Below are positions 24,417-61,815 of a stretch of DNA of 64,000 bases, piece after piece; position 1 is the first letter of the stretch; each line of letters opens with the position of its first letter. Origin of the DNA: an uncultured Verrucomicrobiae bacterium (GTDB taxonomy: Bacteria > Verrucomicrobiota > Verrucomicrobiia > Limisphaerales > Palsa-1400); contig CAVPOM010000012.1 in NCBI GenBank assembly GCA_963707025.1, positions 431,187 to 495,186 of the forward strand, given 5' to 3'. The notes below the pieces were generated by a model. That model saw only the letters and a program-made list of their open reading frames with translations. It had not been told where the DNA came from and searched no databases. A program made the translations under genes and the position numbers.

Positions 24417-25064
24417 GTGAAAACGGAGTTGGAAACCACTTCTTCACCAAGTGCGGAGCTTTGCCCGCGCCGCACCGAGACGGGCTGGTATTGTATTCGC
24501 ACCCATTTGAAACATGAGCACATTGCCTCAGCTCACCTGCGGCGGCTTCCCGGCGTGGAGGTATTCAATCCGCAACTGCGCATTTTGCGCTCCACGCGGC
24601 AGGGTCGCCGGTGGAGCACGGAATCTCTGTTCCCCAATTACGTCTTCGCGCGTTTTGTTTTGGAATCCATGCTGGAGAAGATCATCTACACTCCGGCCGT
24701 CAAGGTGGTGCTCCGGTTTGGCCCCCGGACGCCGGCCATCCCGAACACGGAGATTGAGGAGTTGCGGCAGGGGCTGGACGGGCTGAGTTCCACCGTCTTA
24801 GTGGATGCACCGGCGCAGGGGGAGGAAGTGGAAATCGCCTGCGGAGCCTTCGCCGGTCTTAAGGCCTCGGTCACCCGCGTCCTGCCAGGCAAACACCGCG
24901 CCAAGATTCTTCTGGAAGTCATGGGGCGCTCCGTGCCAGCCGAACTGAGTCTGGACTTGGTGCTCTTTAACCGCAGGGACGCGTTGCAGATAGCGCTCGG
25001 CCGGGTTGAGCCGGTGATCGGGTGTCGGGCGGATGATTCCACTCTTGCCCTGATGTCGCTTTAA
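24417..25064 (+). CDS. NusG/RfaH-family antiterminator paralogue
   Basis: NGN motifs WYCIRT and SLFPNYVFARF; KOW motif GEEVEIACGAFAG; first gene of the polysaccharide locus. Start uncertain (GTG 24417 or 24345). Confidence 0.88.
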   Translation: MKTELETTSSPSAELCPRRTETGWYCIRTHLKHEHIASAHLRRLPGVEVFNPQLRILRSTRQGRRWSTESLFPNYVFARFVLESMLEKIIYTPAVKVVLRFGPRTPAIPNTEIEELRQGLDGLSSTVLVDAPAQGEEVEIACGAFAGLKASVTRVLPGKHRAKILLEVMGRSVPAELSLDLVLFNRRDALQIALGRVEPVIGCRADDSTLALMSL

Positions 25065-25078
25065 CCACGGATGCAGCG

Positions 25079-26779
25079 ATGTTCCACCCCGCCCTCAGCG
25101 TCCGCTTACTGGTTCGCTGCCTTCTCCTTGTTCCGATCGGGATGGAAGGAGAAGATCTGTATGTTTCCCCAAACGGGGCTCCGTCAGGGCCAGGCACGAT
25201 CACCCAACCCTACGACCTGGCTACGGCCCTCTCCGGCAAGGTGGGGCAACCGGGTGACACCTTCTGGCTGAATAGCGGGGACTATGTGATCGGACACATC
25301 AACACGAGAATCCAGGGAGCGCCCGGGCTGCCCATCACCTTTCGCCAATTGCCCGGAGCGTGGGCGCGCCTGGATGGTTCGCTGACCTTTTATGAAAGCA
25401 CCGGCAATGTGATCCTCAGGGATTTGGAGCTGTATAGCTCGGACACCAACCGGGCCAGCGCCGAAACCAACGTCGGGTTCAACCCGACTGACATCAATAT
25501 CATACCAGGCATTTCCTCCTATTCGCCGAATATGTGCTTCATCAACCTCTTCGTGCATGATCAAACACGGCACGGCTTTTACGTTTCGCAGGAATCTTCC
25601 AACAACCTGATTTATGGCTGCGTAATCTGCAACAACGGCTGGAGGTCACCCGACAATGCGGAGGGGCACGGCATTTACGTGCAGGGGTCCAACGGGGGCA
25701 GGTGGGTTTCCAACAACATCGTCTTCAATAATTCCGGGGTCGGCCTGCATATTTACGATAACACGGCCAATCTCTACTTGGCCGGCATCACCCTGGACGG
25801 CAATGTGGCCTTCAATGCGGGTGCCATTCAAAATGTGCGCTTTTACCGGGATTGGATCGTGGGAGTGGACGCCCCGGCCATCAGCGCGGATCGAATTGAG
25901 TTTGACAACAATCTGGGTTACTTCCTGCCCACCGCGGGCCAAGAAGACCAGGTGCAGATCGGTCGCCAAGGGGTCAACGGCAGTGTGACTATCCTCAGCA
26001 ATTACCTGCCCCAGGGACTGGAAATGAACAACTGGACCGTCGCGACGGTGGCCGGCAACGCGTTCTCAGCGACGGCCGGAAATCCCATGGTCACTTTGAA
26101 CCAGACCTTCACGCATTTGGCGGCCGGTTGGAATAACAACACTTACGTGGCGCCGGCCACAGACACAGAGTTCTTGTACAACTTCATACCGCTCGGCTTT
26201 CAAAGCTGGCAAAACGCCACGAGATACGACTCCCACAGCCTCTGGAGCATAGGGAGCCCGAGCGGCGCCAAAGTTTTTATACAGCCCAACCTGTATGAGA
26301 CCGGACGGGCGAACATCATTGTCTATAACTGGGAGAATCTGAGCAATGTCGCCGTTGATCTTAGTTCCGTGTTGGCTGCCGGCGCGGCCTATGAAGTGCG
26401 CAATGCCGAGGATTTCTCCGCTGCACCTGTGTTGACCGGGGTCTTCGATGGCAATCCGGTGATCCTGCCCATGACCGGGTTGGCGGCGGCTGTTCCCAAT
26501 GGTCCGATGTTGGCTCCGGCGCCCACCGGACCGACATTCAATGTCTTTGTCCTGCTGCCGCGCCAGATTCGGCTGGAAGCCACGCTCGCGGATGGCCAGG
26601 TCCAGATTTCCTGGCCGACGAACAGCGGCAATTGGGTCCTGCAATTCGCCCCCAGCCTGTCACCGGGGGCGACTTGGACGGATGTGCCAACCAATCTTGC
26701 CGTTCTTGGTTACCAAACATCCTGGGCCGTGCCCGTGTCCGGAAACTGCGCGTTTTATCGGCTCAGAGGCGTCCCGTGA
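25079..26779 (+). CDS. Secreted beta-helix (pectin-lyase-fold-like) protein with a C-terminal beta-rich domain
   Basis: LYVSPNG..GTITQPYDL start, Asn/Ile beta-helix repeats, GHGIYVQ; ends QISWP...W...FYRL. Confidence 0.75.
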   Translation: MFHPALSVRLLVRCLLLVPIGMEGEDLYVSPNGAPSGPGTITQPYDLATALSGKVGQPGDTFWLNSGDYVIGHINTRIQGAPGLPITFRQLPGAWARLDGSLTFYESTGNVILRDLELYSSDTNRASAETNVGFNPTDINIIPGISSYSPNMCFINLFVHDQTRHGFYVSQESSNNLIYGCVICNNGWRSPDNAEGHGIYVQGSNGGRWVSNNIVFNNSGVGLHIYDNTANLYLAGITLDGNVAFNAGAIQNVRFYRDWIVGVDAPAISADRIEFDNNLGYFLPTAGQEDQVQIGRQGVNGSVTILSNYLPQGLEMNNWTVATVAGNAFSATAGNPMVTLNQTFTHLAAGWNNNTYVAPATDTEFLYNFIPLGFQSWQNATRYDSHSLWSIGSPSGAKVFIQPNLYETGRANIIVYNWENLSNVAVDLSSVLAAGAAYEVRNAEDFSAAPVLTGVFDGNPVILPMTGLAAAVPNGPMLAPAPTGPTFNVFVLLPRQIRLEATLADGQVQISWPTNSGNWVLQFAPSLSPGATWTDVPTNLAVLGYQTSWAVPVSGNCAFYRLRGVP

Positions 26780-26788: not shown

Positions 26789-28096
26789 TTGAAACCCGTG
26801 AATGCTCTCCCGCCACGATGCGGTCGCGCGAAACCAACCGGGCGCTTCCGGCTCCTGCTGGCCCTGCTCGGCTGCGGAGGACTATTCGCCGGAGAAAACG
26901 GCCGCGCCCAATCCTGGGGATCACTGGGCAGCGAGAACGCGGCTGAGGCCCTGGCCCGGGCCATCCAGAACGAACCCTACAGCCAAATTTACGGCCCGCT
27001 GCGGGTCAGAGCCGGGGCGGGCGTGAGCGTCAACTACACGGACAATGTCTTCTACTCCAGTCAACCAAAGGAAGACATCATGATCGAACCCCAGGTTTCG
27101 CTGGACGCTTTATGGCCCATCAGCAAACTCAACACGCTCAGGCTGTCCCTGGGCCTGTCCTACCAGTGGTACTTGAAAAATCCGGTGCTGAACGCCGATG
27201 CCCCTCTGGTTAACCCGGGTTCGGAACTGGCCTTCAATTTTTTTGTCGGCGATTTTCACATCCAGGTGCATGAGCGTTTTTCCTATCAGAAAAGCCTGTT
27301 CTTCAACAGCATCGCGACTGAGAACATGCCCTTTTACAATGTCCACGACGTGGGCTTGTTTTCTCAGCTCAATAACGACGCCGGCGTTGATGTCACCTAT
27401 AACCTGCACAAGGCCGTGCTTTCCGCCGGCTACAATCACGAAGATTTCGATACTTCAACGAGTCTTTTCGAGTATCTGAATCGGGCCTCTGAACAGTTGA
27501 CCGCCAGCGCCAGTTATGCTTTGGGTGACCACCTGCAAACGGGTTTGGAAGCACGGGGGTCCTTCAACGATTATTATCGCGAGACCATTCTGAACGACAA
27601 CTGGCGGGCCCGCGGCGGGGCGTTTGTGGATGTGACTCTTTGGCATGGCCTCAGCTTGCGGGCCGGCGGCGGCTACGACACGGCCGACTACGATGCGACC
27701 GCGCTTCCAAACTGCGATTATGCCAGCTACTATGCCTACGCCCGAATTCGCCAGGACACACGGCTTTTCTCGCACGCGCTGGACGTGGGGCGCGACAACG
27801 TGCTGGGTTTCAACGCCAACAATCTGAGAATGGCCCACGCGCGATACTCCATCTCCTCACCCATCGTCAGCCACGTGGACCTGGGAGCTTTTGCTTCGGT
27901 GAATGCGGGGGAGGAGTACGGCGGGGTTTACGACGAAAGATTCACTTACTACGGCGCGGGCTTTGGTGTTGGCTACGTTTTGGCCAAGCATTGGCGGACC
28001 AACCTCGCCTACGAGTTTGAATCCAAGCACTCGGACCTGGCGCTGGAGAGTTTCCAGCGCAACCGGGTGACTTTGGGCATAGACTGGAGTTTCTGA
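26789..28096 (+). CDS. Outer-membrane beta-barrel protein, polysaccharide-export associated
   Basis: Signal peptide, YTDNVF motif, alternating aromatic beta-strands, terminal Phe (NRVTLGIDWSF); directly upstream of OPX. Confidence 0.8.
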   Translation: MKPVNALPPRCGRAKPTGRFRLLLALLGCGGLFAGENGRAQSWGSLGSENAAEALARAIQNEPYSQIYGPLRVRAGAGVSVNYTDNVFYSSQPKEDIMIEPQVSLDALWPISKLNTLRLSLGLSYQWYLKNPVLNADAPLVNPGSELAFNFFVGDFHIQVHERFSYQKSLFFNSIATENMPFYNVHDVGLFSQLNNDAGVDVTYNLHKAVLSAGYNHEDFDTSTSLFEYLNRASEQLTASASYALGDHLQTGLEARGSFNDYYRETILNDNWRARGGAFVDVTLWHGLSLRAGGGYDTADYDATALPNCDYASYYAYARIRQDTRLFSHALDVGRDNVLGFNANNLRMAHARYSISSPIVSHVDLGAFASVNAGEEYGGVYDERFTYYGAGFGVGYVLAKHWRTNLAYEFESKHSDLALESFQRNRVTLGIDWSF

Positions 28097-28214
28097 CTGC
28101 CTCACCGCTTCCGCCCAAGCGCTCCGTCGAAATCGGCGCGGCCACGCGGAACTTGGAAAAGATTCGTTCACCGTGCAATTCGCGCTCCAAATGCGCTCGG
28201 AGAGTCTCGGCTTT

Positions 28215-28859
28215 ATGACCAGGCGATTTATCATTCTAGTGGCGGCCCTTGCCGCCTTGCAATACGGCGGCCCCGCGCTGGCTGGGGACACCAACCAAAC
28301 GGTTTGGGCGGCCACCGGCATGGCGATGGACTCTCTGGACGACCACTACAAGCTCGGCCTCGGCGACGTCGTGATCTATCAGGTGACCGAGGACCGGGAC
28401 CTGCCTCGTTCCCTCAAAGTCACCGATTCCGGGGATCTGCAAGCGCCTTACTATGGATTGGTTCACGCGGCCGGCAAAACCTGCCGCCAACTGGCCCAAG
28501 AGATCAAGGCCTTGTTGGAGAAGAAGCTTTACTATCGAGCCACGGTCGTGATTGCGCTGGAGGTGACGGATAAGGCCTGGGTCACAGGCAAGGTCTATGT
28601 CACCGGTCAAGTGCGCCTGCCCGGCGGCTTTAACCTGAAGGGGGGGGAGAATCTGACGGTCAGCAAGGCGATTCTGGACGCGGGAGGATTCAGCGACTTT
28701 TCCGATAAAAAGCACGTCCGGCTCATCCGCAAGACGGCCCGCGGAGACAAACCTTTCATCGTCAACGTGCTCGACGTTTGGGCTGGGCACCTGGACAAAG
28801 ACCTCGCTGTGCAACCAGGCGACATGATCGTGGTGCCGGCCCGCCTGGTCAATTATTGA
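28215..28859 (+). CDS. Short OPX (Wza-like) polysaccharide export protein, Poly_export plus one SLBB
   Basis: YKLGLGDVV, AAGKT..QL, VYVTGQVRLPG, AGGFS, QPGDMIVVP; no lipobox Cys and no C-terminal helix. Start placed at ATG 28215. Confidence 0.88.
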   Translation: MTRRFIILVAALAALQYGGPALAGDTNQTVWAATGMAMDSLDDHYKLGLGDVVIYQVTEDRDLPRSLKVTDSGDLQAPYYGLVHAAGKTCRQLAQEIKALLEKKLYYRATVVIALEVTDKAWVTGKVYVTGQVRLPGGFNLKGGENLTVSKAILDAGGFSDFSDKKHVRLIRKTARGDKPFIVNVLDVWAGHLDKDLAVQPGDMIVVPARLVNY

Positions 28860-28870
28860 GGCGCAATTTC

Positions 28871-31189
28871 ATGAAACTCAACGGAAACAGTTTTAACACC
28901 GGCGTGGTGGATTTCTTTGCTCCCTCCAGCCGGTTTGTGTCGGCATCCAGGATCTATCGTCGGCTGCACCGGTGGTGGCTTGTTCTGCTCAGATACTGGT
29001 GGATGCTGGTGGTGATCGTGGTGGCCGTGACCGGTGCGGCTTATGCCTACACCACTCGCTCCGGGCCGACGTATGAGTCCAAAGCGCGCATGTGCCTGAC
29101 GGGCAAAATCAACATCTCCGGGGACCAGCTCTACACGGAGGAGTTGATCAATTTCCTCGGCACCCAGGCCGAGTTGCTCCGCAGTCCAGCCATTCAGAGG
29201 CGGGCCATGGCCAGTTTGCCGGCGGAGTTCAGACCGGCCCCTCGTCGAGGCGTGGTTGGCGGCGGGCCCGATTTGAAGGACCTCGGCAAGGCCCAAGTGC
29301 CGGCGCGAAAACTTTTTGCCTCCGGCTCGGCCCCTGGCAGCAATGCGCCCCCCCCGATTCCTTTTGACGTCAAAGTTCAGGAAGGGTCCAAAAGCAGCAC
29401 GCTTGATTTGCGAGTGACGGGACCGGACCCAATCTCCACCCGGAGATTTCTGGATAGCTTGATGGAGGCCTACCTGAGTTACAAAAAGGAATCTCTTGAC
29501 CAGGCTTCCGCGCAGGCCACGGCCTCTCTGACCGCCGAGGCGGGGCAGTTGAAGAGCCAGTTGGACCAGGCCCAAGCCAAGCTGCACGACTTGGAGGCCT
29601 CCAACAATGTGGTCTTTCTCCAGCAGCAAGGCGCTGGGGCCGAAAGCTACCTGGCCTCCTTGAACCGGCGACTTGCCATTCTGCGCACTGAACTCAGGCT
29701 GCTCGATTCCCTTACGCCCGAGCAGTGGGTGGAGACCGATGCCGCCGGCGCAAGCGCCCTCTCTGGTCCATCTTCCGGCGACGAAGCGGCGGCCCGGCAA
29801 ACTCTGGCCAACCTGAAGGAATCCCAAACTGCCTTGTTCCAGGCAGACCAGAAGATGCATCAGCTTATGGCCGAGCGTGATGAGCTGGCCCGTTTCCTGC
29901 GGCCGGCGCACCCCAAGATCGTCAATCTCAACCAGCAGATTGCGGCCCAGGATGCTGTGGTGGGAGCGTCGCGGGAGGAAGCAGCCAAGGAGCTGACGCT
30001 TCGGCGCCAGGCCCTGCAGTTGCAGGTGCGAAATCTGGAAGCCGCCTTTGAAGATTGGAGTGCCAAAGCCATTGCGGCCAGCCACACCATGGCCGATTAT
30101 GAACAAATCCGCCAAACGGTGCAGCGCCTTCAAAACGCCTACGACAAGACCCTTGATATCATCCAGAACATTAACGTCCGCAAACGGGTCGAGCAGGAAA
30201 ACGTCGGCATCCTTGATCCGGCCTCCGTCGCGACGCCAACCCATCGGGTGTTGATCAACATGACGATCGCGACCGCCGTTTCTCTCCTGTTGGGTTTTGG
30301 CTTGCTCTATGGTACGGCCCTGTTTCAGGATGACTTTGCCTCGCACATGGAATTGGCCGAGGAGCTGGCCGAGCCGGTGGTGGGTCAGGTCCCGTCCATC
30401 TCCATGAGCAAGTCCAAGTCCCCCCTGGGCATCGAGGGGTTGGAAAGGGGACATTATGAGTTCCTGGAGGCCTTTCGCAACATCCGGGCTTCGCTCCTGT
30501 TTGGGAAAAATGGCGGCGCCAGGCCAAAAACGATCATGGTCGCCAGTTCGGTGCCAGCGGAAGGCAAATCCACCCTCGCACTGTATCTGGCCGCTATGCT
30601 GGCCCGAGGCAACTCGCGTGTGCTCCTGGTTGATGGAGATTTGCGCCGGCCCAGCTTGCACAAGTACCTTCGCCTGCCACCCGGTCCGGGCCTGGCGGAG
30701 GTTCTGGGGGATGAAATTTCTCCCCCGGACGCGATTCTCGCCACTGACGTTCAGAATCTGTCCTTGCTGCCGGCCGGCCAAGCCGCGCGCAATCCCGGAG
30801 ACCTTCTGCTCAGTCCCATCTGGGAGCAATTCCTGGCCTCGGTCAAGCCGCGCTTCGATTACATCCTGGTGGACACCCCGCCGGTGATGGCCACCGACGA
30901 TGCGGTCGCCCTGGCCTCCAAAGCGGACGGCGTTCTTTTTGTGGTGCGGGCCCTGTCCACTTCCGCTCGCGTCGTGCGCGGCGCGTTGGACTTGCTCCGG
31001 CAGCGGCAGGCGCATGTGGTCGGCTTGGTTTTCAACCGCGCTGTGTCTTCACCCTGCGAGCGTCAGTATTACAAGCCCTACGCCCGCGCCTATCGCTGGC
31101 AGCCGGAGAAGACCGGGCTTGGCGGCGTGCTGGTGGCGGGCAACCCTGCTCCCAACACCACGGCCGCCGGTTCCAGTGAATCGGCCTGA
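28871..31189 (+). CDS. wzc: Polysaccharide co-polymerase / tyrosine autokinase (Wzc-like)
   Basis: Two TM segments flanking a coiled coil; Walker A PAEGKS, A-prime LVDGDLRRP, B LVDTPP; Tyr tail YYKPYARAY. Confidence 0.92.
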   Translation: MKLNGNSFNTGVVDFFAPSSRFVSASRIYRRLHRWWLVLLRYWWMLVVIVVAVTGAAYAYTTRSGPTYESKARMCLTGKINISGDQLYTEELINFLGTQAELLRSPAIQRRAMASLPAEFRPAPRRGVVGGGPDLKDLGKAQVPARKLFASGSAPGSNAPPPIPFDVKVQEGSKSSTLDLRVTGPDPISTRRFLDSLMEAYLSYKKESLDQASAQATASLTAEAGQLKSQLDQAQAKLHDLEASNNVVFLQQQGAGAESYLASLNRRLAILRTELRLLDSLTPEQWVETDAAGASALSGPSSGDEAAARQTLANLKESQTALFQADQKMHQLMAERDELARFLRPAHPKIVNLNQQIAAQDAVVGASREEAAKELTLRRQALQLQVRNLEAAFEDWSAKAIAASHTMADYEQIRQTVQRLQNAYDKTLDIIQNINVRKRVEQENVGILDPASVATPTHRVLINMTIATAVSLLLGFGLLYGTALFQDDFASHMELAEELAEPVVGQVPSISMSKSKSPLGIEGLERGHYEFLEAFRNIRASLLFGKNGGARPKTIMVASSVPAEGKSTLALYLAAMLARGNSRVLLVDGDLRRPSLHKYLRLPPGPGLAEVLGDEISPPDAILATDVQNLSLLPAGQAARNPGDLLLSPIWEQFLASVKPRFDYILVDTPPVMATDDAVALASKADGVLFVVRALSTSARVVRGALDLLRQRQAHVVGLVFNRAVSSPCERQYYKPYARAYRWQPEKTGLGGVLVAGNPAPNTTAAGSSESA

Positions 31190-31252: not shown

Positions 31253-32413
31253 ATGCGCCAACTGCAACTTGATTCCTTGCGCGGCTTGGCGGCTTGTATC
31301 GTCGTGTTTTGCCATGCCACAAATTTGCTGCCGGGGGTCTATGACGATCCGCGGCAACATTGGTGGCTGACGGAGACGCCGTTGGCGCTGCTGCGGGAGG
31401 GCCACGCGGCGGTGATTTTCTTCTTTGTTCTTAGCGGTTATGTCCTGGCACTGCCTTTCTTGAAGGGACCGGTGGCTTACGAGGCGTTTATATTCCGGCG
31501 CATTTGCCGCATCTGGATCCCCTACATTACGGCCACGGCCGTGGCCATGGCCTGTGCCATTTGGTTCTATCCAGGCAGGGTAGCGGGTCTGAGCCACTGG
31601 GCCAACCGACCCATCCCGTTCCCCAGCGCGCGGTTGATTCTGGATCATCTCCTTTTGGTGGGGTCCTTTGCCCACCAGACGTATAACGGCGTCATTTGGT
31701 CTTTGGTTTACGAGATGCGTATCTCGTTGGTTTTCCCGCTCCTGGTCCTTCTACTGCGGCTGGGCGCCTGGTGGCGGGTGCTGGGCGCCGCGGCGGCCTT
31801 GTCGGCGGCCGAGTTGGTGGTGGAACGATTCCCGTTCTGGTCCGGTTCGGACGATTTGCCCATGACGTTGCATTACGCGGGACTTTTTGTGCTGGGGATG
31901 GTCTTGGCGCGGGACATGCCCAAGGTTCAGGCGCTCTACAGTCGTTTTACATTTTGGGCTAAAGCCTGGCTGTGGCTGTTGGCGTTGGCTTGCTTCGGCC
32001 ATGAGACATGGCTCTTCTCCAGTTCCAGGATACAACATCTCCCGATTTATCGGGATGGGATGACCGCCATGGGCGTGTCGCTCTTGATTATTTTCGCCCT
32101 TTCGCCGTCACGGTTCTCCACTTGGTTGGAAGGAAGGATACCGGTTTTTCTGGGGAAAATCTCCTACAGTGTCTATCTTTATCATGCGGTGATCCTCCTG
32201 TCGTTGGCGCATGTTTTTTACCCAAGGGCTTCCTGGAGTTTGCTCTGGCTGGGGACCGGTGTGCTGACCCTCGGCGTGGCGGCGCTTTCCTACCAGTTCG
32301 TGGAGCTTCCGTCCATCCGGCTAGGCAAATGTGTCTGCTTGCAGCGCGAAGCGGCGGCCACTCCGCGCATCGAACTATCGGCTAACGGGAAACAAGATTC
32401 TGCTGTCGGTTAA
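31253..32413 (+). CDS. Membrane acyltransferase family 3 (OafA-like)
   Basis: LDSLRGLAA..VVFCH, FFVLSGY, RRICRI, WSLVYE, GKISYSVYLYH. Confidence 0.92.
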   Translation: MRQLQLDSLRGLAACIVVFCHATNLLPGVYDDPRQHWWLTETPLALLREGHAAVIFFFVLSGYVLALPFLKGPVAYEAFIFRRICRIWIPYITATAVAMACAIWFYPGRVAGLSHWANRPIPFPSARLILDHLLLVGSFAHQTYNGVIWSLVYEMRISLVFPLLVLLLRLGAWWRVLGAAAALSAAELVVERFPFWSGSDDLPMTLHYAGLFVLGMVLARDMPKVQALYSRFTFWAKAWLWLLALACFGHETWLFSSSRIQHLPIYRDGMTAMGVSLLIIFALSPSRFSTWLEGRIPVFLGKISYSVYLYHAVILLSLAHVFYPRASWSLLWLGTGVLTLGVAALSYQFVELPSIRLGKCVCLQREAAATPRIELSANGKQDSAVG

Positions 32414-32426
32414 CTTAAGGTTTAAG

Positions 32427-33983: not shown

Positions 33984-34012
33984 ATCCGTCCGGACTGCTT
34001 CAAACGATTTCA

Positions 34013-35359: not shown

Positions 35360-35423
35360 GGAGATTGGTCCTTCTCAATATGCGCCCGGCTGCACTTTCT
35401 TGAGTCAGGGTATTGCCATAGTC

Positions 35424-43871: not shown

Positions 43872-43874
43872 TCT

Positions 43875-46998: not shown

Positions 46999-47065
46999 CG
47001 CAGATGGCGCCGCCGCTGGCCTTGGCCATGCGCCCGCATCGCCCGTGACGATAAACCAATGGGAT

Positions 47066-48749: not shown

Positions 48750-48762
48750 ACTGCCCTTCGCC

Positions 48763-50784: not shown

Positions 50785-51774
50785 CTATCACCAATATGTA
50801 CCCCTCGACGGCCTGCCCCAGTCAGGGTGTCTTTGTGGAAGAACAAGTCAAAGGCCTGCGCTTAATCGGCTTGGAGGTGCGCGTTTTGGTGGTGGATCGC
50901 CGGCGCGACGGACCGACGGCCTACTATCGTCTCCGCGCCAATGTCCGCAGCGCCGTCGCCGAGTTCGCCCCTGATGTCGTTCACGTGATGTACGGTGGAG
51001 TCATGGCCGACCAGATCCTGCGCCACCACCATGTCTGCCCTATCGTGGTCACCTTTCATGGTTCGGATTTGCTGGGCGAGAACCTTTCCGGTTGGACGCG
51101 GAAAATGATTTCCCGCTATGGAGTGCAATGTTCGAAGAGGGCAGCCGAGGTGGCCGACGCCGTCGTTGTCGTGGCACGACATCTGGTGGGCGCTTTGAAA
51201 GGAGCCGCGGCGCCGCACAAGGTCCGAGTCATCCCTTGTGGGATTGACCTGGAACGGTTCAAGCCCATGGATCCGATGGCCTGCAAGCACTCGCTGGGCT
51301 GGAACCCTCAATCTTTCCATGTTCTCTTTGCGTCCGGCAACGGTTGACCCTGTCAAACGACCCTGGCTCGCCGGTGCGGCCCTGGCGCAATGGGAAGGGC
51401 CGGGCCGTTCGGCGGAACTTCATTGCCTGCGCGGCATTCCCAACGCCGCAGTGCCACTCTGGCTGAACGCCAGCGATGTGTTGCTGCTGACATCAATGCA
51501 TGAAGGATCGCCCACCATTGTCAAGGAGGCCCTGGCTTGCGGCCTGCCGGTGGTGTCGGTGGACGTGGGAGACGTGGCCGAGCGCATCGAAGGGATTGAA
51601 GGCTGTTATCTGGCGCCCTCTGACCCAGCCGAGCTGGCCGGAAAACTTTCTCTGGTTTGGCAGCGCCGCCAGCGCCTCGACTGTCGCACCCGGCTGGAGG
51701 AGCTTTCCATCGTGAGGGTGGCCGAAGACTTGAAGCGGTGTTATGAAGACATCCGAATTGCAAAGCCGCGTTGA
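50772..51774 (+). CDS. GT4 glycosyltransferase (frameshift near 51345)
   Basis: MRILAITNMYP...FASGNG, then frame changes to DPVKRP...EGSPTIVKEALA; removing one T in GGTTGA restores one ORF. Confidence 0.85.
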
Positions 51775-54700: not shown

Positions 54701-55036
54701 CCGGCCCCAGGCCCGGGGGATGACTCAGCGCGCCGAGCGGCCGATTTACCGCCAACTTCCGCCGAACAGATGGTCATGGACGCATTCCGCGCCGCGCTGA
54801 ACCGGACGGATTTCGGCGTGTGCGACAGCTTTTTCGACCTCGGCGGCCATTCCCTCATGGCCGCCCGACTCATGTTCACGCTTCGCGCTGCCTCGGGCAT
54901 TGATTTGCCGCTGCGCCTGCTCTTCGAGCGCCCGACGGCGGCCGCGTTGGCCAAGGCAGTGGAGGAGTTGACCTGGCTGGAGAGGTCCAAGGTACCGAGC
55001 CACAGCGCCAGTGGCCGGGAAGAAATCGAGATGTGA
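51743..55036 (+). CDS. Single-module NRPS C-A(Gly-like)-PCP with C-terminal docking motif
   Basis: SFSQQRLWFL, HHIISDG, YTSGSTG, code DILQLGMVWK, PNGKLDR, GGHSL; ends REEIEM. Confidence 0.95.
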   Translation: MKTSELQSRVESPGRNGAGSRLRPAAPRLEALAHPGPTELSFSQQRLWFLDQMEPGRTTYTIPMAIELRGALDVRVLERALGALVSRHESLRTVFVAEAGRPLQIVSAPGVWKLPVTDLGGEPKAREQLDKSLRQEVSQGFDLARGPLFRARLYRLAAGHYVLLLAMHHIISDGWSMGILFRELGELYGCFSRGLAATLPPLALQYRDFAPWQRRFLQGDVLDKLLRHWCSRLAGAPQVLELPADHPRPAVESNRGAMYSFSLPLELAESLRQFARRESATLFMTLLAAFNVLLARYSGQEDILVGTHVANRNRLEIEDVVGCFVNTLVLRADLSGDPSVSQFLGRVREACLDAFDHQDLPFERLVEELRPARDLSRNPIIQVMFAMENMPLRPLDLPGLTQAPLEIDPGVARTDLMLLVQETSQGLVGLFEYATDLFDAPAIVRMATHWRALLEAMVASPMGRLSELPLLTELERQRLLVEWNRTAADYPRASCVHELFERQAQRTAQAAAVTFGDQHLSYGQLNRRSNQIAHHLRNLGIGSGARVGLCVERSLEMLVGLLGILKAGAAYVPLDPSFPPDRLRFMADDAQFSLLVATTFLAGSFGLPRERQVLLDADAKTLAAAPDTPLAMDVHSARPENPAYVIYTSGSTGKPKGVVVPHRAVVNFLASMSRTPGLAASDVLVAVTTLSFDIAVLELLLPLTVGAHVMIADQDQTMDGHALGSLLHREKATVMQATPVTWRLLLEAGWTPERAFKALVGGEALPKSLADQLIARGVELWNMYGPTETTVWSTCARITDTSNGITIGKPVANTTIRILDGRKNLCPIGVPGELCIGGEGVCLGYWNRTQLTAERFIPDPLGTTPGARLYRTGDRARWRGDGTLEHLGRLDCQVKLRGFRIEPGEIESAIAQHPAVREATVTARETRPQDKRLVAYLVAPNPPDDLPGQLRALLRAAMPEYMVPAHFVMLDALPRTPNGKLDRQSLPAPGPGDDSARRAADLPPTSAEQMVMDAFRAALNRTDFGVCDSFFDLGGHSLMAARLMFTLRAASGIDLPLRLLFERPTAAALAKAVEELTWLERSKVPSHSASGREEIEM

Positions 55037-55114
55037 GAATCCAATAACCATGTGTTCCAGGAGGATTAAACTGCCCAATAGTCTCTCATCACAATTTTAA
55101 TTCTGGAGGTTCAA

Positions 55115-56935
55115 ATGAATATCATCGGCATCAGTGGTGTGCATCAGAATATCGCCTTTAAGACCCGGCAGTTCCCGGGCTTATCCCACCGGCAGTACCG
55201 GATCAATCAGGGCTTCGACTCCGCCGCCGCCCTGGTCGATGCCAGCGGAGTTGTCGCGGCCGCCGCCGAAGAGCGGTTCACCCGCGATAAGGCCACGGGA
55301 GATTTTCCGGTGGGCGCCATTCGGTATTGTTTGCAGGCGGGCCAGATCAACATCAACCAGGTGGATTTCCTGGCTCATGGCTTCGCCTACCAACCGTTCC
55401 AATCCGCCTTCCAGGAGCCTGAGTACGCGCGCCGGCAATACCTGGAGTTGTACTCGCCCGAAGCCCAGAAGGGGCATCTGCACCATCATTTTCCGGGTCT
55501 GGACTGGGACAGTAAGTTCATGGCCGTGCCGCACCACTTGGCGCACGCGGCCAGCGCGTTCTACCCCAGCGGCTTTGAGGAGGCACTGGTCCTGGTGAGT
55601 GATGGCATGGGTGAAGTCCATAGTATGACGGTGGCCCTGGGACAGGGGACGGAATTAAGCATCTTGAAGCAGGTGCCTGCGTTCCATTCCCTGGGAATTT
55701 TATACGGCGTTTTCACGCTTTACCTGGGTTTCTTCATGAACATGGACGAATACAAGGTCATGGGTCTGGCCCCGTACGGCAATCCGCGCCCGTACTTTGA
55801 TAAGGTGATGGAGTTGGTCCATCTGAACAATGACGGGACCTACATCGTTCCCGCGTTTGGCCACAACAAAACACAAATTGAAAAGGAAACACACGCGGGA
55901 GTCCTCAGCTTGTTGACGGAACGCTTCGGCCCGCCGCGCGAGCCCGGGAGCCAGATTACCCAGAAACACAAAGATATCGCCGCGGCCCTCCAAGCCGTGC
56001 TCCAGAAGTGCCAACTGCACGTCGTGCGCCATTTCAAAGGCGAAACCGGCCAGCGCCACCTCTGCCTGGCCGGGGGCGTGGCCTTGAATTGCTCCATGAA
56101 CGGCGTCCTGCGCCGCAGTCGCTTGTTTGACAACATCTTTGTTCAACCTGCGGCGGGAGATGATGGCTGCGCCTTGGGTGCGGCCCTTTTCGCGCATAAG
56201 CGGCATGATCCCGGCTTCAAACCGCGCAAAATGACCGTGCCCTTGTGGGGACCGGAGTTTGGGGAGGACGAAATTGCCAGGGCGCTCGAAGACCAGGCGG
56301 ATTGCGTCTGGACAAAAGTGGACTTCTTCGACGAGCTGTGCCGGCAAATCGCCGAGCGCATCGCCTCCGGGGAGATCGTGGCCTGGTTCCAAGGGCGCAT
56401 GGAGTTCGGGCCTCGCGCGCTGGGCAGCCGGAGCATCCTGGCGGACCCGCGCGACCCCGGCATGAGAGATCGCGTCAACAGCCTGGTCAAGAAGAGAGAA
56501 GGCTTCCGCCCTTTTGCACCCGTCGTCACAATCGAGGCGGCCCGGCGGTATTTCGAGATCGCCCCGGGCGAGGAGGATTGTTTTGCTCACATGCTCTATG
56601 TGACGCAGGTCCTTCCCGCCTACCGGCAAAATCTCCCGGCCACCACGCACGTGGATGGGTCGGCCCGAGTGCAGACCGTCTCCGAGCAAGACAACCCACG
56701 GCTGTGGAAACTGTTGAAGGCGTTCGAACGAGTCACCGGCCTGCCCATCGTCCTCAACACTTCCTTTAATGTCAAAGGCGAGCCCATCGTCTGCACGCCC
56801 CGTGAAGCGATCAACACGTTTAGGAATGCCCGCTTGGACGCCCTGGTCCTGGGGGACTATTTGGTCGAACCTAAGCGTGCCGCTCAGGGCTGGCAGGACA
56901 GGGAAAGGCAGCCGGCCACGGCTTTAGCTGGGTGA
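55115..56935 (+). CDS. Carbamoyltransferase (NodU/CmcH/TobZ family)
   Basis: AAAEERFTR, HHLAHAASA, EYKVMGLAPYG, AGGVALN, EFGPRALG, FRPFAP, HVDGSAR, LNTSFN. Confidence 0.95.
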   Translation: MNIIGISGVHQNIAFKTRQFPGLSHRQYRINQGFDSAAALVDASGVVAAAAEERFTRDKATGDFPVGAIRYCLQAGQININQVDFLAHGFAYQPFQSAFQEPEYARRQYLELYSPEAQKGHLHHHFPGLDWDSKFMAVPHHLAHAASAFYPSGFEEALVLVSDGMGEVHSMTVALGQGTELSILKQVPAFHSLGILYGVFTLYLGFFMNMDEYKVMGLAPYGNPRPYFDKVMELVHLNNDGTYIVPAFGHNKTQIEKETHAGVLSLLTERFGPPREPGSQITQKHKDIAAALQAVLQKCQLHVVRHFKGETGQRHLCLAGGVALNCSMNGVLRRSRLFDNIFVQPAAGDDGCALGAALFAHKRHDPGFKPRKMTVPLWGPEFGEDEIARALEDQADCVWTKVDFFDELCRQIAERIASGEIVAWFQGRMEFGPRALGSRSILADPRDPGMRDRVNSLVKKREGFRPFAPVVTIEAARRYFEIAPGEEDCFAHMLYVTQVLPAYRQNLPATTHVDGSARVQTVSEQDNPRLWKLLKAFERVTGLPIVLNTSFNVKGEPIVCTPREAINTFRNARLDALVLGDYLVEPKRAAQGWQDRERQPATALAG

Positions 56936-56992
56936 TCCCGATTTTGCGCCGCTCGCTTGCCGCGGCGGCGCGCCCTGTTCATAAACACCGAG

Positions 56993-59900
56993 ATGATGGA
57001 GCCACGCATTATGAATGCAATTGAGCAGCCGACCGCCTATTGGCTGAGGCAGCTATCCGATCTGCCTCCCCCTCCCAATCTGCCTTCGGACAAAGAACGC
57101 CCACCGGTTTCTTCTTTCCTCCGGGAGACCGTCTCAACGAAGCTCGCCCAAGAAGTCTGGAATGGCGCCAAGGGCCTGGCGGCCCGCGCGGACACCACTC
57201 CTCATGTGGTGCTTCTGGCCGCGCTTAAGACCCTTTTGTTCCGCTATACCGGTCAATCGGACCTGCTCATCGGAACTGTTCTCAGCACAAACTCGGTGCC
57301 GGCGCATCATGAGACGGTGGCTTTGCGGACTCGATTGTTGAGCCACCGCACGGCCCTGGATTTGGTGCTGGAGGTCGCCACCTCCGTCCACGACGCCGCA
57401 GGGCACCTTCATCTGCCTTTTCGCCAAGTGCTCCAAATGTTGAAACATCAGCCGGGAGCGCACGAGGAAGGTCTGTTCAACGTTGCCCTTATCTTCGACG
57501 AGGCAAAGCCTGGTCTGGCCCGGCCCTCGCCCCCGGCTGAATCTGCTGCGGCTGAACACTTGATGACTTGCGCGCTGGTGCTGCGCGCCAAGGAGGCGGA
57601 TGAGGCCCTGGCTCTCGGTTGTGAGTATGATGCCGAACTCTTCGAATCCGCGACGGTAGAGAGGCTGGCTGGACATCTCGGCAACGTGCTGGCCGCGATG
57701 GCGGCCGAACCGCATACCACTCTCGACCGGCTGAATCTGCTCGGCGCGGCGGAGCGCCGGCAGTTGTTGGTGGAATGGAATGCGACCGGGACCGAACTTC
57801 CTAAAGCAACCTGTATCCATCAGCTCATCGAAGCCCAGGCGAGCAAGACTCCCCACGCCATAGCCGCTATCTGCCGGGCCCGTCAGCTTACTTATGCGCA
57901 ACTGAATGCGCGCGCGAACCAAGTTGCATCTTACCTTTCCAAACTCGGTGCAGGTCCGGACCTGCTGGTAGGCCTGTGCGCCGACCGCTCGTTGGAGATG
58001 CTGGTGGGCTTGTTGGGGATTCTCAAATCGGGAGGCGCTTATCTCCCTCTTGACCCCGCCTATCCCCCCGATCGCCTCGCCTTCATGATCGAGGATGCTC
58101 AAGTCAAAGTGCTGCTCACTCAGCAGCGCCAGATGGCCGCCTTGCCTCCCGGCCAAGCGGCACGGGTGTGCTTGGACGCGGACTGGCCTTTGATAGCAGC
58201 CGAACCCGCGCAGAATGTGGATCGGGGCGTGGCCTCCCATCATCTGGCCTATGTGATTTACACCTCCGGCTCGACCGGCCAGCCCAAAGGGGTGATGGTT
58301 GAACATGGCAACGTGCTCAACTTCTTTGCCGGCATGGACGCCCGCATTCCGCATGATCCGCACTCCACCTGCCTGGCGGTGACGAGCCCTTCCTTCGATA
58401 TTTCCGTGCTGGAGCTTTTTTGGACGCTGGCTCGAGGTTTCAAAGTCGTGCTCTATGCCGGTGATGAACCCAAGCGCCCTGCCCGCCCTCACGCCAGGGC
58501 GGCGGCGGCGCGCCCAATGCAATTCAGTCTTTTCTACTTTTCCTCCGATCAATGCGACGGCCCGGGCGGCGCTTACCGGCTGCTGACCGAGGGCGCACGC
58601 TTTGCCGACGCGCACGAGTTTGTCGCCGTCTGGACTCCAGAACGGCACTTTCACGAATTCGGCGGGTTGTATCCCAACCCCTCCGTCACCAGCGCGGCTC
58701 TGGCCATGATCACCCAGCGCGTCCAAATCCGCTCCGGCAGCGTGGTCGCTCCTCTGCATTCGCCCATTCGCATTGCCGAAGAATGGTCGGTCGTGGATAA
58801 CCTCTCCAACGGCAGGGTGGCCATTTCCTTCGCTTCCGGTTGGATGCCCGAAGACTTCACGGTCAGCCCCGCCAATTACGCCCGGCGCAAAGAGATTATG
58901 GTCCAGGATATTGATCTCGTCCGCCGACTCTGGCGCGGCGAACGGGTGCCCTTGCCCGGTCCGCTGGGCCAAGATGTGCCCATCAAGATCTTTCCCAGGC
59001 CGGTTCAGCGGGAATTGCCCTTGTGGTTGACAGCCGCGGGCAATCCCGAAACTTTCCAGATGGCGGGGCGCCTGGGCATGAATCTCCTCACCCACCTCCT
59101 GGGCCAAAGTATTGAAGAGGTCAGCCATAAAGTGGCCCTTTACCGCCAAGCCTGGAAGGAGGCCGGACATGCCGGGCGCGGCCACGTCACCTTGATGCTT
59201 CACACCTTCGTGGGCGAGAATCTGGAGATGGTCAAAGCGACCGTGCGAGAGCCTCTTACCGAATACCTTCGCAAATCCGCCGATTTGATCAAAAGCTACG
59301 CCTGGGCCTTCTCCGCCTTCAAGCATCATGCAGAATCCAAGGTAAAGGTGGATTTCAGCGCTTTGCCCAAGGATGAGATGGAGGCGATTCTGGCTCATGC
59401 CTTTGATCGCTATTTCGACACCAGCGGCTTGTTCGGCACACCCCAAAGCTGCCTGAACTTCATCGCTAATTTGAGCGCCAATGATATTGACGAAGTAGCT
59501 TGTCTGATCGATTTCGGAGTCAGTCCCGACCTGGTGCTGGATCACTTGAAGCACCTCGACGCCCTGCGTCTGGCCGTCAGCGAAGGAGCGGAGGATGAGC
59601 CGACGGATTACTCTATCCCGGCTTTGATTCAGCGCCATGATGTGACGCACCTGCAATGCACTCCCTCGCTCGCCGGCCTGTTGCTTCAGGACGAGCGAAC
59701 GCAGCGTGCCTTGGGCCGGCTGCGCGCCCTTTTGATCGGCGGCGAAGCGTTCCCCGTGGCCCTCGCCAAGCAACTCCAAACTTTGGTTCAGGGCGACATC
59801 CTTAATATGTACGGACCGACCGAGACCACGGTCTGGTCCAGCGCGTATCTGTTGCCGCCGGCGGCGCCCCGCCTTCCCGTCGGCCGCCCCATTGCCAATA

Positions 59901-60754
59901 CAGAAATCTACATTCTGGATCACAACCTGTTGCCGCTGCCCGTGGGCATCGCGGGTGAATTGATGATCGGGGGCGCGGGCGTGGCGCGCGGCTATCTCGG
60001 CCGGCCCGAACTGACCGCCCAACGTTTTATCCCCGATCCATTCCAAGGCCAGGGCGCCAAACGACTCTACCGGACCGGAGACCTCGCCCGTTTTCTTGCC
60101 AGCGGTGATATCGAGATCCTGGGACGCATGGATCATCAGGTCAAAATTCGCGGCCACCGGGTCGAACTGGGCGAGATCGAAGCGGTGCTCAGCGGCCATC
60201 CTACCGTGCGCGAAAGCGTGGTTGTGGCCAAAGCCGCCGCCGGCGGGGACAAGCGCTTGGTCGCCTACGTTATCTCGCGCGATGGACAAAATCCGACTCC
60301 GCTCCAATTGCGCAAATACCTCCAGCAAAAAGTGCCCGATCACATGGTGCCGGCACAAATCGTGTTCATGACGGCGTTTCCACAAACGCCCAACAAGAAA
60401 ATAGATCGTAACGCGTTGCCAGCCCCGGACCCAGACCCGGCCGAAAGCCAGAGTGACTTCGAGCCGCCTGCCACAGTCGTGGAGGAGACTTTGGCCGCCC
60501 TCTGGAGCCAGTTATTGAACGTTCCGCGAGTGGGCCGGCGCGACAACTTTTTCGAGCACGGTGGCCATTCCCTTTTGGCCATGCAACTGGTCAGCCAGGT
60601 CCGTCACCGTTTCGGCGTGGATCTGCCTCTGAAGAATTTGTTCGAGCGCCCGACCGTCTCCGGGCTGGCTGAGGCCATTGATGCCTTGTCCTGGTCGGCC
60701 CCTTCCAGCGCCCCAGTCCGCGCGCAGGGTGATCGAGAGGAGGTCGAGGTGTGA
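56993..60754 (+). CDS. Single-module NRPS: half C domain-A(Gly-like)[LLM insert]-PCP with C-terminal docking motif
   Basis: No HHxxxDG; YTSGSTG; LLM motifs WTPERHFH and EEWSVVDNLSNGR at about 58517..59580; code DILQLGMVWK; GGHSL; ends REEVEV. Start uncertain (56957-57011). Confidence 0.93.
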   Translation: MMEPRIMNAIEQPTAYWLRQLSDLPPPPNLPSDKERPPVSSFLRETVSTKLAQEVWNGAKGLAARADTTPHVVLLAALKTLLFRYTGQSDLLIGTVLSTNSVPAHHETVALRTRLLSHRTALDLVLEVATSVHDAAGHLHLPFRQVLQMLKHQPGAHEEGLFNVALIFDEAKPGLARPSPPAESAAAEHLMTCALVLRAKEADEALALGCEYDAELFESATVERLAGHLGNVLAAMAAEPHTTLDRLNLLGAAERRQLLVEWNATGTELPKATCIHQLIEAQASKTPHAIAAICRARQLTYAQLNARANQVASYLSKLGAGPDLLVGLCADRSLEMLVGLLGILKSGGAYLPLDPAYPPDRLAFMIEDAQVKVLLTQQRQMAALPPGQAARVCLDADWPLIAAEPAQNVDRGVASHHLAYVIYTSGSTGQPKGVMVEHGNVLNFFAGMDARIPHDPHSTCLAVTSPSFDISVLELFWTLARGFKVVLYAGDEPKRPARPHARAAAARPMQFSLFYFSSDQCDGPGGAYRLLTEGARFADAHEFVAVWTPERHFHEFGGLYPNPSVTSAALAMITQRVQIRSGSVVAPLHSPIRIAEEWSVVDNLSNGRVAISFASGWMPEDFTVSPANYARRKEIMVQDIDLVRRLWRGERVPLPGPLGQDVPIKIFPRPVQRELPLWLTAAGNPETFQMAGRLGMNLLTHLLGQSIEEVSHKVALYRQAWKEAGHAGRGHVTLMLHTFVGENLEMVKATVREPLTEYLRKSADLIKSYAWAFSAFKHHAESKVKVDFSALPKDEMEAILAHAFDRYFDTSGLFGTPQSCLNFIANLSANDIDEVACLIDFGVSPDLVLDHLKHLDALRLAVSEGAEDEPTDYSIPALIQRHDVTHLQCTPSLAGLLLQDERTQRALGRLRALLIGGEAFPVALAKQLQTLVQGDILNMYGPTETTVWSSAYLLPPAAPRLPVGRPIANTEIYILDHNLLPLPVGIAGELMIGGAGVARGYLGRPELTAQRFIPDPFQGQGAKRLYRTGDLARFLASGDIEILGRMDHQVKIRGHRVELGEIEAVLSGHPTVRESVVVAKAAAGGDKRLVAYVISRDGQNPTPLQLRKYLQQKVPDHMVPAQIVFMTAFPQTPNKKIDRNALPAPDPDPAESQSDFEPPATVVEETLAALWSQLLNVPRVGRRDNFFEHGGHSLLAMQLVSQVRHRFGVDLPLKNLFERPTVSGLAEAIDALSWSAPSSAPVRAQGDREEVEV

Positions 60755-61815
60755 AGGTTCTGGAATTCCTTGTCATGCTCCGTGACCGCGATATCCAGGT
60801 CTGCGCGGACGGTGATCGGCTCCGATGCAACGCCCCGGCCGGCGCACTCACCCCCGAGTTGCGCCATGAACTGCGCCAGCGCAAAAAGGATATTCTGGAA
60901 TTCCTCCGCTCGGCCGAGGCCCTGGCGCAACAGCAGCGCGCCATCGTGCCTCTTCAGCCGCATGGCTCAGCCACTCCCGTTTTCGCCGTCGCAGGACACA
61001 ATGGCGACGTCTTCTGCTTCCGCGCCCTGGCACGCCACTTGGGCGAGGATCAACCGTTTTTCGGCTTGCAGCCCCCGGGTCTCGACGGCAACCGCGCGCC
61101 GCTGACGCGCGTGGAGGATCTGGCCGCGTATTTCGCGGCGCAAATCCGCACGGTCCAACCCGACGGCCCTTATGTCATTGCCGGCTATTGCGCGGGCGGA
61201 ACGATCGCTTTCGAATTGGCGCGACAGCTCCTCCGGGACGGAGCGGCGATCCGTGTTCTGGCCCTGTTCGGCAGCCCTTTTCCGACCTCGTACCGCCTCC
61301 TGCCGCAACTGCGCGAGCTCCTGTGCCAGGGGGTGGGCCGCGTGGTCAGGCACACCCGCACACTGGCATCGCTGCCGGCTGCGGAATTATGGGGATACGT
61401 CGCCCAAAGGCTGCCACGCCGCAACGCGCCCGAGGCCGCCGAGCGTGACGCGCCGCCCGACCCCGTGCTGGTCCAACGCGCCAAGGTTGGGCGCGCCACC
61501 CTGGAGGCGATTCGTCGCTATGCGCCCAAACCATTTTCCGGCCGTATGATGTTGTTCTGGCCAAGCCCGTTATGGCGGTGCTGCGGCGACGCGCCGAGGC
61601 AGTGGCCTTCCGTCGCCCCATCCGCCGAGAAGTATTTCGGACCGGACGGCTGCACGGGGGACACCATGCTCCGTGAACCCTACGCCGCGACGTTGGCCCA
61701 GCTTTTCAGGCGCTTCGCACCAGCAGCGAACGATAGAAGAACCAACCTCCCAAGCCAGCCCCTGACGAAGTCCCCATGTTGGGAGGGTGGACACATGAAC
61801 GCTTTGTCGCCCTGA
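60751..61815 (+). CDS. Thioesterase-like alpha/beta hydrolase with N-terminal TubC-type beta-hairpin docking domain
   Basis: N-terminus LEFLVML...DGDRLRCNAPAGALTPELRHELRQRKKDILEFL; TE motifs LGEDQPFFGLQ, GPYVIAGYCAGG. GTGA overlap with the NRPS stop. Confidence 0.85.
   Translation: MKVLEFLVMLRDRDIQVCADGDRLRCNAPAGALTPELRHELRQRKKDILEFLRSAEALAQQQRAIVPLQPHGSATPVFAVAGHNGDVFCFRALARHLGEDQPFFGLQPPGLDGNRAPLTRVEDLAAYFAAQIRTVQPDGPYVIAGYCAGGTIAFELARQLLRDGAAIRVLALFGSPFPTSYRLLPQLRELLCQGVGRVVRHTRTLASLPAAELWGYVAQRLPRRNAPEAAERDAPPDPVLVQRAKVGRATLEAIRRYAPKPFSGRMMLFWPSPLWRCCGDAPRQWPSVAPSAEKYFGPDGCTGDTMLREPYAATLAQLFRRFAPAANDRRTNLPSQPLTKSPCWEGGHMNALSP

Follow-up and report, generated by a model that had tools for sequence, protein, structure and literature searches.

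We analyzed a 64,000-nt window of contig CAVPOM010000012.1, from the assembly of an uncultured Verrucomicrobiae soil bacterium, and found that a 38-kb Wzx/Wzy polysaccharide locus within it ends in a nonribosomal peptide synthetase (NRPS) cassette. The cassette consists of two NRPSs, NRPS1 and NRPS2, a carbamoyltransferase (CT) encoded between them, and a stand-alone thioesterase (TE) encoded behind them. The same arrangement recurs in other assemblies, and the layout is therefore beyond chance. In our favored reading, to which we assign a probability of about one half, the cassette makes a carbamoylated, α-hydroxylated glycyl thioester (here probably glycyl-glycyl) that is meant for an amine of the lipid-linked repeat unit and is not released as a free peptide.

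The locus (24345-62696) is a single, tightly packed and co-oriented run on the + strand, as judged from a listing of open reading frames (ORFs) and from scans with Pfam and NCBIfam profiles. The source is a metagenome-assembled genome, 88% complete and in 18 contigs. All five hallmarks of a Wzx/Wzy system are present on one strand: Wzx, Wzy, Wzc, Wza, and the initiating phosphoglycosyltransferase (PGT). Five glycosyltransferases (GTs) were counted in the run in addition to DegT, PGT, and PglF. A first-pass annotation of this DNA had described one co-oriented run in which the last GT4 gene overlaps the start of NRPS1, followed by a carbamoyltransferase, a second NRPS, and a thioesterase, and both the order and the overlap were borne out. 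The 32-nt overlap is real: NRPS1 has its first ATG at 51743, and the reading frame of GT4 extends to 51774. Taken in order, the gaps at the cassette junctions are -13, -32, 78, 21, and -4 nt, the last being the overlap of the TE start with the NRPS2 stop. No ABC or MFS exporter was found within the run by Pfam or NCBIfam, which agrees with the earlier statement that the glycan exporters are its only exporters. A promoter and terminator scan of 44000-63900 was uninformative, performing no better than shuffled sequences, with 1 promoter-like site where 4.5 were expected and 24 terminator-like sites where the expectation was 21.2.

In order to place the cassette in a wider context, we inspected eight distinct loci with a CT of at least 62% identity, plus L013, a near-duplicate of L009. 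Five loci are embedded among glycan genes: the window, three other species-level genomes (G495, G431, and G432), and one metagenome contig (L012). Collinearity extends over the whole locus, cassette included, at 54 to 85% amino-acid identity, so the NRPS genes are not chance neighbors of the glycan genes. G495 carries everything from the NusG-like gene through TE, NRPS1 included, on one 75-kb contig. The same order without NRPS1 is found in G431 (contigs C70 and C119) and G432 (C584 and C125, where the contig break divides the GT4a gene), and L012 reads PglF-GT4-NRPS1-CT-NRPS2-TE. PglF precedes the cassette in G432 and GT4c follows it, at distances of 57 and 21 nt. Thus, the cassette keeps its place through two rearrangements, the presence or absence of NRPS1 and the position of GT4c before or after it.

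The neighborhoods of these loci differ in other respects. G431 and G432 carry an extra set of genes ahead of GT2 (L016:2813-3163, L010:1965-3902, L010:55-1870), consisting of a second AsnB, an NAD-synthase-like protein, a carrier protein, and a 645-aa AMP ligase; the free-standing carrier protein was seen in G431. This set is a second carrier-protein-dependent acyl pathway in the polysaccharide locus, and it is absent from the window. In G495, the region beyond TE encodes, on the opposite strand (L027:11218-14547), a C-A-T NRPS of 1109 aa with the motif HHLLLDG and a GlmS-like protein. The window has a DUF4184 gene at that place, which is kept in G431 and was not found there in G495.

CT homologs at 75 to 84% identity are numerous in metagenomes. 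No ortholog of CT or of NRPS2 was found in 30 relatives or in 400 sampled genomes of the phylum, and among 61 genomes around G431 the only one with a CT/NRPS2 ortholog was G431 itself. Because neither locus nor cassette was found in the nearest kin, we conclude that the whole locus moves as one unit. The PglF loci of six relatives (G003, G004, G007, G012, G021, and G023) were considered as the same locus and set aside, being only 48 to 59% identical. One locus without the cassette, running from GT2 to DegT-PGT-PglF in G007 (contig C52, L024:6408-10787), contains a 1459-aa ORF without a Pfam match and a 944-aa ORF with a weak AMP-binding match. Pattern-based scans of the collection yielded 3 and 2 loci; the CT of L011, from an actinomycetotal source (Actinomycetota), is 49% identical.

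Enzymes of the cassette

NRPS1 has the make-up of an elongation module, with condensation (C), adenylation (A), and thiolation (T) domains (C, A, and PP-binding in Pfam) and with the motifs HHIISDG in the C domain and GGHS in the T domain. Its best PDB match (2.6e-263) is to residues 782-1795 of LgrA, presumably the glycine module 2 of that protein. AB3403 also matches (1e-180), and it is reported to have been crystallized with glycine (PMC10510592). Orthologs of NRPS1 occur in G495 (71%) and L012 (57%), and none was found in the G431 or G432 loci; present in three of the five glycan-embedded loci, NRPS1 is an optional, dispensable elongation module. Its C domain did not point to a donor, as it is 47% identical both to the C domain after the loader of G510 and to C2 of the cluster upstream in the window, and 39% identical to that of the L012 ortholog.

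The earlier description of two single-module NRPSs holds for the modules as such and needs correction for NRPS2, whose C domain consists of the C-terminal lobe only. It covers Pfam profile positions 190-456 (protein residues 21-271) and has no HHxxxDG motif. The half-C domain begins at profile position 190 in L009 and 187 in L010, and in G502 only positions 162-283 match. This C domain has lost its catalytic lobe. The A domain of NRPS2 is Gly-type and is interrupted at residues 523-871 by a luciferase-like monooxygenase (LLM) of the MupA/Atu3671 type, here called MOx (TIGR04020, 503 bits against a cut-off of 244). The Gly-type code DILQLGMVWK, with positions assigned by GrsA numbering, was read again in the A domains of both NRPSs, as the first pass had given it, and it also occurs in module 2 of an NRPS encoded upstream.

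That upstream NRPS belongs to a separate cluster with polyketide synthase (PKS) domains at 2-11341 on the - strand, which runs off the left edge of the window. It encodes a 2547-aa NRPS (C-A-T-C-A(MOx)-T), followed by ketosynthase (KS) and acyltransferase (AT)-T-C parts in two overlapping frames with an apparent frameshift. Because its module 2 is 48% identical to NRPS2 residues 20-1256, NRPS2 looks like such an A(MOx) module minus the N-lobe of its C domain. A 1363-aa metagenome protein, P0286, is 46% identical in the half-C region and has precomputed Pfam matches to C, T, radical SAM (PF04055), and A domains, with no luciferase-like monooxygenase listed.

CT possesses both domains of its family, the Kae1-like Carbam_trans_N (3.7e-55) and the YrdC-like Carbam_trans_C (5.2e-70). 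Its PDB matches are GdmN (1.1e-114 over residues 34-589), NovN, and TobZ. Three features tie it to NRPS2. Its gene lies directly before the A(MOx)-T module in all eight loci. It is fused to this module, in whole or in part, in three proteins: P0078 (CT and half-C, 921 aa), P0252 (CT and half-C, A, and MOx, 1704 aa), and an open frame of 2395 aa in G510. Finally, when CT was modeled in complex with NRPS2 residues 1-290, the score was 0.70, and the best of three controls gave 0.02; a score this high is reached by 116 of 157 solved complexes and by 2 of 215 mismatched pairs, counts that are rough since custom alignments were used. Contact agreement between runs was at least 97%, and the partner pLDDT was at least 90. 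The predicted contacts on NRPS2 fall on residues 47-56, a conserved ERPPVSSF-type motif with the invariant residues P49, P50, and R56. We know of no solved complex of a CT with a C domain, which makes a memorized structure an unlikely source of the model. The model supports binding of CT to the half-C of NRPS2, and the fusions together with the predicted interface indicate that the partner of CT is the NRPS and not a sugar. Programmed read-through from CT into NRPS2 was also considered, as the two share a frame with one stop between them in the window; this frame relation is not kept in L010 and L013, and the idea was dropped.

TE begins with a docking domain (TubC_N, PF18563, 3e-18; PDB matches AerJ, TubC, and EpoB). 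Its structure model (mean pLDDT 79.5) has NRPS/PKS TE domains as its top Foldseek matches, with E values down to 9e-17, and identifies the fold as that of a predicted type I TE. The nucleophile is Cys147, which is invariant in 29 of 29 aligned sequences within the motif G-[YF]-C-x-G-G (GxCxGG). Gly174, also invariant, occupies the canonical Asp site at +27 from the nucleophile. These residues were mapped by motif and secondary structure, not by superposition. No conserved His occurs after residue 83 in the 29 aligned sequences, and the loop after the last strand (297-310) carries the invariant Cys301 instead; this absence was read from alignment A1 and the secondary structure of the model, PDB searches aligning the N-terminal half only. 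TE therefore does not have the canonical Ser-His-Asp triad. The family is large, with 1772 database clusters at E ≤ 1e-10. NRPS1 ends in ...REEIEM and NRPS2 in ...REEVEV, and tails of the form REE[IV]E[MVLI] are conserved across the orthologs of both, making them a plausible ligand of the TE docking domain.

A candidate for the transferase lies further upstream in the run. The 332-aa protein (unk332) has no Pfam match at 1e-5 and only a faint FemAB match (E 0.11). Its G432 ortholog matches PF13480 at 1.3e-06. Its first Atlas hit scores 0.96, with Acetyltransf_6 and FemAB carried by a minority of the members (25% and 18%, respectively). A 53% identical homolog is encoded directly upstream of CT in the stand-alone cassette of G502. 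The protein is probably a GNAT of the FemAB/Acetyltransf_6 type. Pfam revealed no Hexapep or PglD-type N-acetyltransferase beside DegT/PglF, and no PglD-type one elsewhere in the locus. The obvious acceptor would be the 4-amino-4,6-dideoxyhexose implied by PglF and DegT; alternatives would be amines freed by the two deacetylases.

Remaining genes of the locus and state of the assembly

The genes of the run are given in Table 1. The first encodes a NusG paralog that falls below the NCBIfam cut-offs for RfaH (75 bits against 144.5), UpxY (60 bits against 100), and LoaP, and a 59% identical ortholog heads the G495 locus. The genes within 40453-45729 have orthologs at 57 to 82% identity in G431, G432, and G495, and the PaaK-like ligase is not conserved in the G431 or G495 loci. 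The largest gap of the run is the 299 nt between DegT and PGT (46999-47297), which may reflect a mis-set start or an internal promoter. The PGT ORF of L009 is longer by 41 codons.

Table 1. Genes of the co-oriented run in window coordinates, with the profile matches or orthologs on which each assignment is based
Feature	Position	Strand	Basis
NusG paralog (RfaH/UpxY/LoaP-like), first gene	24345-25064	+	Pfam NusG 3.3e-09; NCBIfam RfaH 6.6e-21
Beta-helix protein	25079-26779	+	Pfam Beta_helix; orthologs in G431, G495
Putative outer-membrane barrel	26789-28096	+	Weak porin matches; orthologs in G431, G495
Wza-like exporter	28173-28859	+	Poly_export and SLBB
Wzc tyrosine autokinase/co-polymerase	28778-31189	+	P-loop domain; TIGR01007 126 bits (cut-off 108)
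Acyl_transf_3 O-acyltransferase	31253-32413	+	Pfam
Wzx flippase	32331-33983	+	Pfam
PaaK-like AMP-dependent ligase, start uncertain	33662-35359	+	NCBIfam DVU_1553 family 5.9e-29, below cut-off
FemAB/Acetyltransf_6-like GNAT, 332 aa (unk332)	35400-36398	+	Faint FemAB match; ortholog PF13480
DUF2334 deacetylase-like protein	from 36205	+	Pfam, NCBIfam
AsnB-type amidotransferase	37155-39158	+	Pfam, NCBIfam
Wzy polymerase (Wzy_C)	39002-40441	+	Pfam, NCBIfam
GT4a	at 40453	+	Pfam
GT4b	at 41705	+	Pfam
Polysaccharide deacetylase	within 40453-45729	+	Pfam
GT2	at 43875, within 40453-45729	+	Pfam
SAM methyltransferase	within 40453-45729	+	Pfam
DegT aminotransferase	45769-46998	+	Pfam, NCBIfam
Initiating phosphoglycosyltransferase (PGT, Bac_transf)	47298-48749	+	Pfam, NCBIfam
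PglF-like 4,6-dehydratase	48763-50784	+	Pfam, NCBIfam
GT4c, split in assembly	50772-51774	+	Pfam
NRPS1, C-A-T, 1097 aa	51743-55036	+	Pfam
Carbamoyltransferase CT (NodU/CmcH/TobZ family), 606 aa	55115-56935	+	Pfam
NRPS2, half-C-A(MOx)-T, 1265 aa	56957-60754	+	Pfam, NCBIfam
Stand-alone TE with TubC_N docking domain, 354 aa	60751-61815	+	Pfam
DUF4184/YdjM-like membrane metal hydrolase, last gene	61776-62696	+	Pfam

GT4c occupies two frames in the assembly (50772-51347 and 51238-51774), and its sequence suggests one extra T near 51344. A look for public runs with this DNA listed no RNA run that could attest co-transcription and a single soil DNA run containing part of the stretch, against which we checked the split. 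A 321-nt contig from that run, otherwise identical, has one letter fewer at 51344 (depth 2.9, a single contig), and the same run reveals a compensating pair of indels in the PGT gene at 48375 and 48393. GT4c is intact in L009, L012, and G495. Other split or shifted genes in the window lie at 2-3701 (KS/AT), 19383-21186, and 17359-18515. Given the public contig without base 51344, the PGT indel pair, and these other overlapping split ORFs, the split of GT4c is probably an assembly indel and not the mark of a pseudogene. The assembly seems indel-prone, and frameshifts in this genome should not be taken as pseudogenes without reads.

Proposed pathway and competing explanations

The favored reading can be laid out as a series of steps. 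NRPS2 would load glycine onto its own T domain, and CT, docked on the half-C remnant, would cap the tethered glycine, a role modeled on that of the F domain in the F-A-T initiation module of LgrA. We favor N-carbamoylation as the cap because free α-hydroxyglycine (or a free α-hydroxyglycyl thioester) is an unstable hemiaminal; the enzyme family suggests O-carbamoylation of the new hydroxyl as the alternative. MOx would then hydroxylate the α-carbon of the capped glycine. According to three reports, MOx domains sit in Gly-recruiting A domains and hydroxylate the α-carbon of T-bound N-acyl-glycine (PMC11342130, PMC11411415, PMC10204066). NRPS1, where present, would add one more glycine, and the acyl group would pass to Cys147 of the docked TE. 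TE, the FemAB-like GNAT, or both might finally move it to the amine of the undecaprenyl-diphosphate-linked repeat unit, on the cytoplasmic side and ahead of flipping by Wzx.

We also entertain a more specific version, which is tentative and clearly less probable than the general one. It holds that a TobZ-type CT, either docked onto a Gly-A(MOx)-T loader or fused with it, forms a loading unit of a new type that builds a ureidoglycolyl-type (N-carbamoyl-α-hydroxyglycyl) group, and that the His-less Cys-TE together with the FemAB-like transferase installs this group on an undecaprenyl-linked amino sugar before flipping. This would be the first NRPS-tailored Wzx/Wzy polysaccharide.

It is important to note that several points weigh against the favored reading. 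Every transfer step, including that to the sugar amine, is inferred. The order NRPS2 to NRPS1 is not established by the sequences, since both proteins carry TE-type tails. Lacking a His, TE might work slowly or not at all, and the FemAB-like GNAT could simply N-acetylate the amino sugar. All CT relatives of solved structure (GdmN, NovN, and TobZ) are O-carbamoyltransferases, which argues against N-capping. The synteny could partly reflect shared descent, as the glycan-embedded loci are fairly close relatives with CTs 78 to 84% identical. Finally, the cassette also exists outside glycan loci. In G502, a FemAB-like/CT/NRPS2/TE set lies between DUF1501/DUF1800 genes and glycerol kinase/MIP genes; in G524, CT-NRPS2 is found at a contig end with a GH20 gene upstream; and G510 encodes, along with an ABC transporter, an NRPS-PKS whose loader (first module) is a fusion of CT with A(MOx)-T. 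The link between these NRPSs and glycan genes claimed by the first-pass annotation thus holds in part: the cassette occupies the same place in five glycan-embedded loci, but it also occurs elsewhere in these three genomes. Because it is found both outside glycan loci (G502 and G524) and as an NRPS-PKS loader (G510), the CT-A(MOx)-T unit is portable and self-contained and need not be glycan-bound. It can serve the synthesis of small molecules, since the G510 unit loads an ordinary NRPS-PKS.

The strongest competitor builds on these same contexts. It takes the cassette as a self-contained miniature biosynthetic gene cluster (BGC) that frees a small acid, such as N-carbamoyl-(hydroxy)glycine or its dipeptide, and hitch-hikes in a mobile locus whose polymer stays unmodified. 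Its distance from glycan genes in G502 and G524 and the exporter-equipped NRPS-PKS of G510 speak for it, as does the second MOx-containing NRPS/PKS 13 kb upstream in the window, from which it follows that this genome uses MOx modules for secondary metabolism. We nevertheless consider a free product rather unlikely. The cassette has kept its position in five glycan loci despite the rearrangements around it, the run is without an exporter of its own, the gaps or overlaps to the flanking glycan genes are short, and a Cys nucleophile without His makes TE poorly suited to hydrolysis.

Two further explanations would assign different chemistry to the same proteins, and we give little credence to either. 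NRPS2 and TE might act as an amide-forming device of the MtaG/MelG kind, in which an acyl or uronyl group is placed on the glycine nitrogen and α-hydroxylation leaves a primary amide plus glyoxylate, which TE discards, so that glycine is only a nitrogen donor. The architecture described for terminal amides is indeed a Gly-type A domain that contains a MOx and is followed by TE: in the myxothiazol and melithiazol reports, hydroxylation splits off the primary amide and glyoxylate is left for the TE (PMC11342130, PMC11411415). However, the C domain that this would need has neither its N-lobe nor HHxxxDG, an AsnB-type amidotransferase is already present in the locus, and a carbamoyl group as the acyl would give urea and glyoxylate in a futile reaction. 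Hydroxyglycine can moreover be retained, as is reported for the α-hydroxyglycine of solanimycin B (PMC10204066). Alternatively, CT might O-carbamoylate a sugar of the repeat unit like NodU or BlmD and be a mere neighbor of the NRPS, which would separately add a plain (hydroxy)glycyl group. The location of the gene within a glycan locus fits this proposal, and so does the action of all solved relatives on hydroxyls. Against this improbable division of labor stand the fusions of CT to A(MOx)-T in three independent sequences, one of them an NRPS-PKS without sugar context, the persistence of CT beside the module in the non-glycan settings of G502 and G524, and the predicted interface with the conserved half-C motif.

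Comparison with known systems

Each part belongs to a known kind: the Wzx/Wzy locus, the MtaG-like A(MOx) module, the TobZ-like CT, the Cys-TE, and the TubC-type docking domain. Their combination fits neither an MtaG-type amide-forming module, as the catalytic C domain is missing and the TE acts in trans and has no conserved His, nor a canonical TE triad. In a literature search whose coverage left out most subscription journals, neither an NRPS cassette within a Wzx/Wzy locus nor a carbamoyltransferase belonging to an NRPS loading module was found described. If the favored reading is true, the products of assembly-line peptide chemistry enter surface-polysaccharide synthesis directly, the repertoire of glycan substituents widens to carbamoylated, hydroxylated glycyl groups, and genome-mining tools mislabel such loci as "NRPS BGCs" for free metabolites. 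Two oddities stand whatever the acceptor: an NRPS loading module that has a carbamoyltransferase for its tailoring partner, and a widespread family of TEs in which a Cys is invariant and the catalytic His is missing.

NRPS2 shares with MtaG and MelG (myxothiazol and melithiazol; C-A-MOx-A-T-TE) and with SolF (solanimycin) a Gly-type A domain into which a luciferase-like monooxygenase is inserted, with T and TE coming after it. Unlike them, NRPS2 has a C-lobe remnant without the catalytic motif instead of a competent C domain, has CT attached, and is encoded inside a Wzx/Wzy locus. Where those systems have a hydrolytic TE in cis, the TE here is encoded on its own, with a docking domain, a Cys nucleophile, and no conserved His. 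The initiation module of LgrA (F-A-T, linear gramicidin) likewise begins with an N-terminal tailoring enzyme, a formyltransferase, that acts on a T-tethered starter amino acid. The presumed tailoring enzyme here is instead a TobZ/GdmN-type carbamoyltransferase, and it is mostly a separate protein.

For the TE, one of the closest likenesses is to that of ObiF (obafluorin), in which Gly1173 is reported to lie at +27 from Cys1146 (PMC6668435). The two share the Cys nucleophile and the Gly at the usual Asp site; ObiF keeps its His and a relocated Asp, whereas our TE is without a conserved His and has an invariant Cys in the His loop. AB3403 aligns with GWCFGG at the nucleophile position. The thioesterase of Pks13 matches at the level of the type I TE fold only, at 17 to 19% identity. 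The mycobacterial Pks13 TE passes its acyl group to trehalose, a sugar and not water, and is thus a precedent for a TE that acylates a sugar. Unlike the TE described here, it uses a Ser-His-Asp triad and a hydroxyl acceptor.

Carrier-protein-dependent decoration of envelope polymers is known from Dlt D-alanylation, the tetronate genes rfbKLMNO of V. cholerae O1, and Neisseria PglB2, which places glyceroyl on a 4-amino sugar; the N4-acyl group of bacillosamine-type sugars is a known variable position. As in the locus described here, an adenylating enzyme and a carrier protein supply the acyl group for a surface glycopolymer in these systems. None of them is known to employ a genuine NRPS module together with MOx, a carbamoyltransferase, and a TE, as our locus does.

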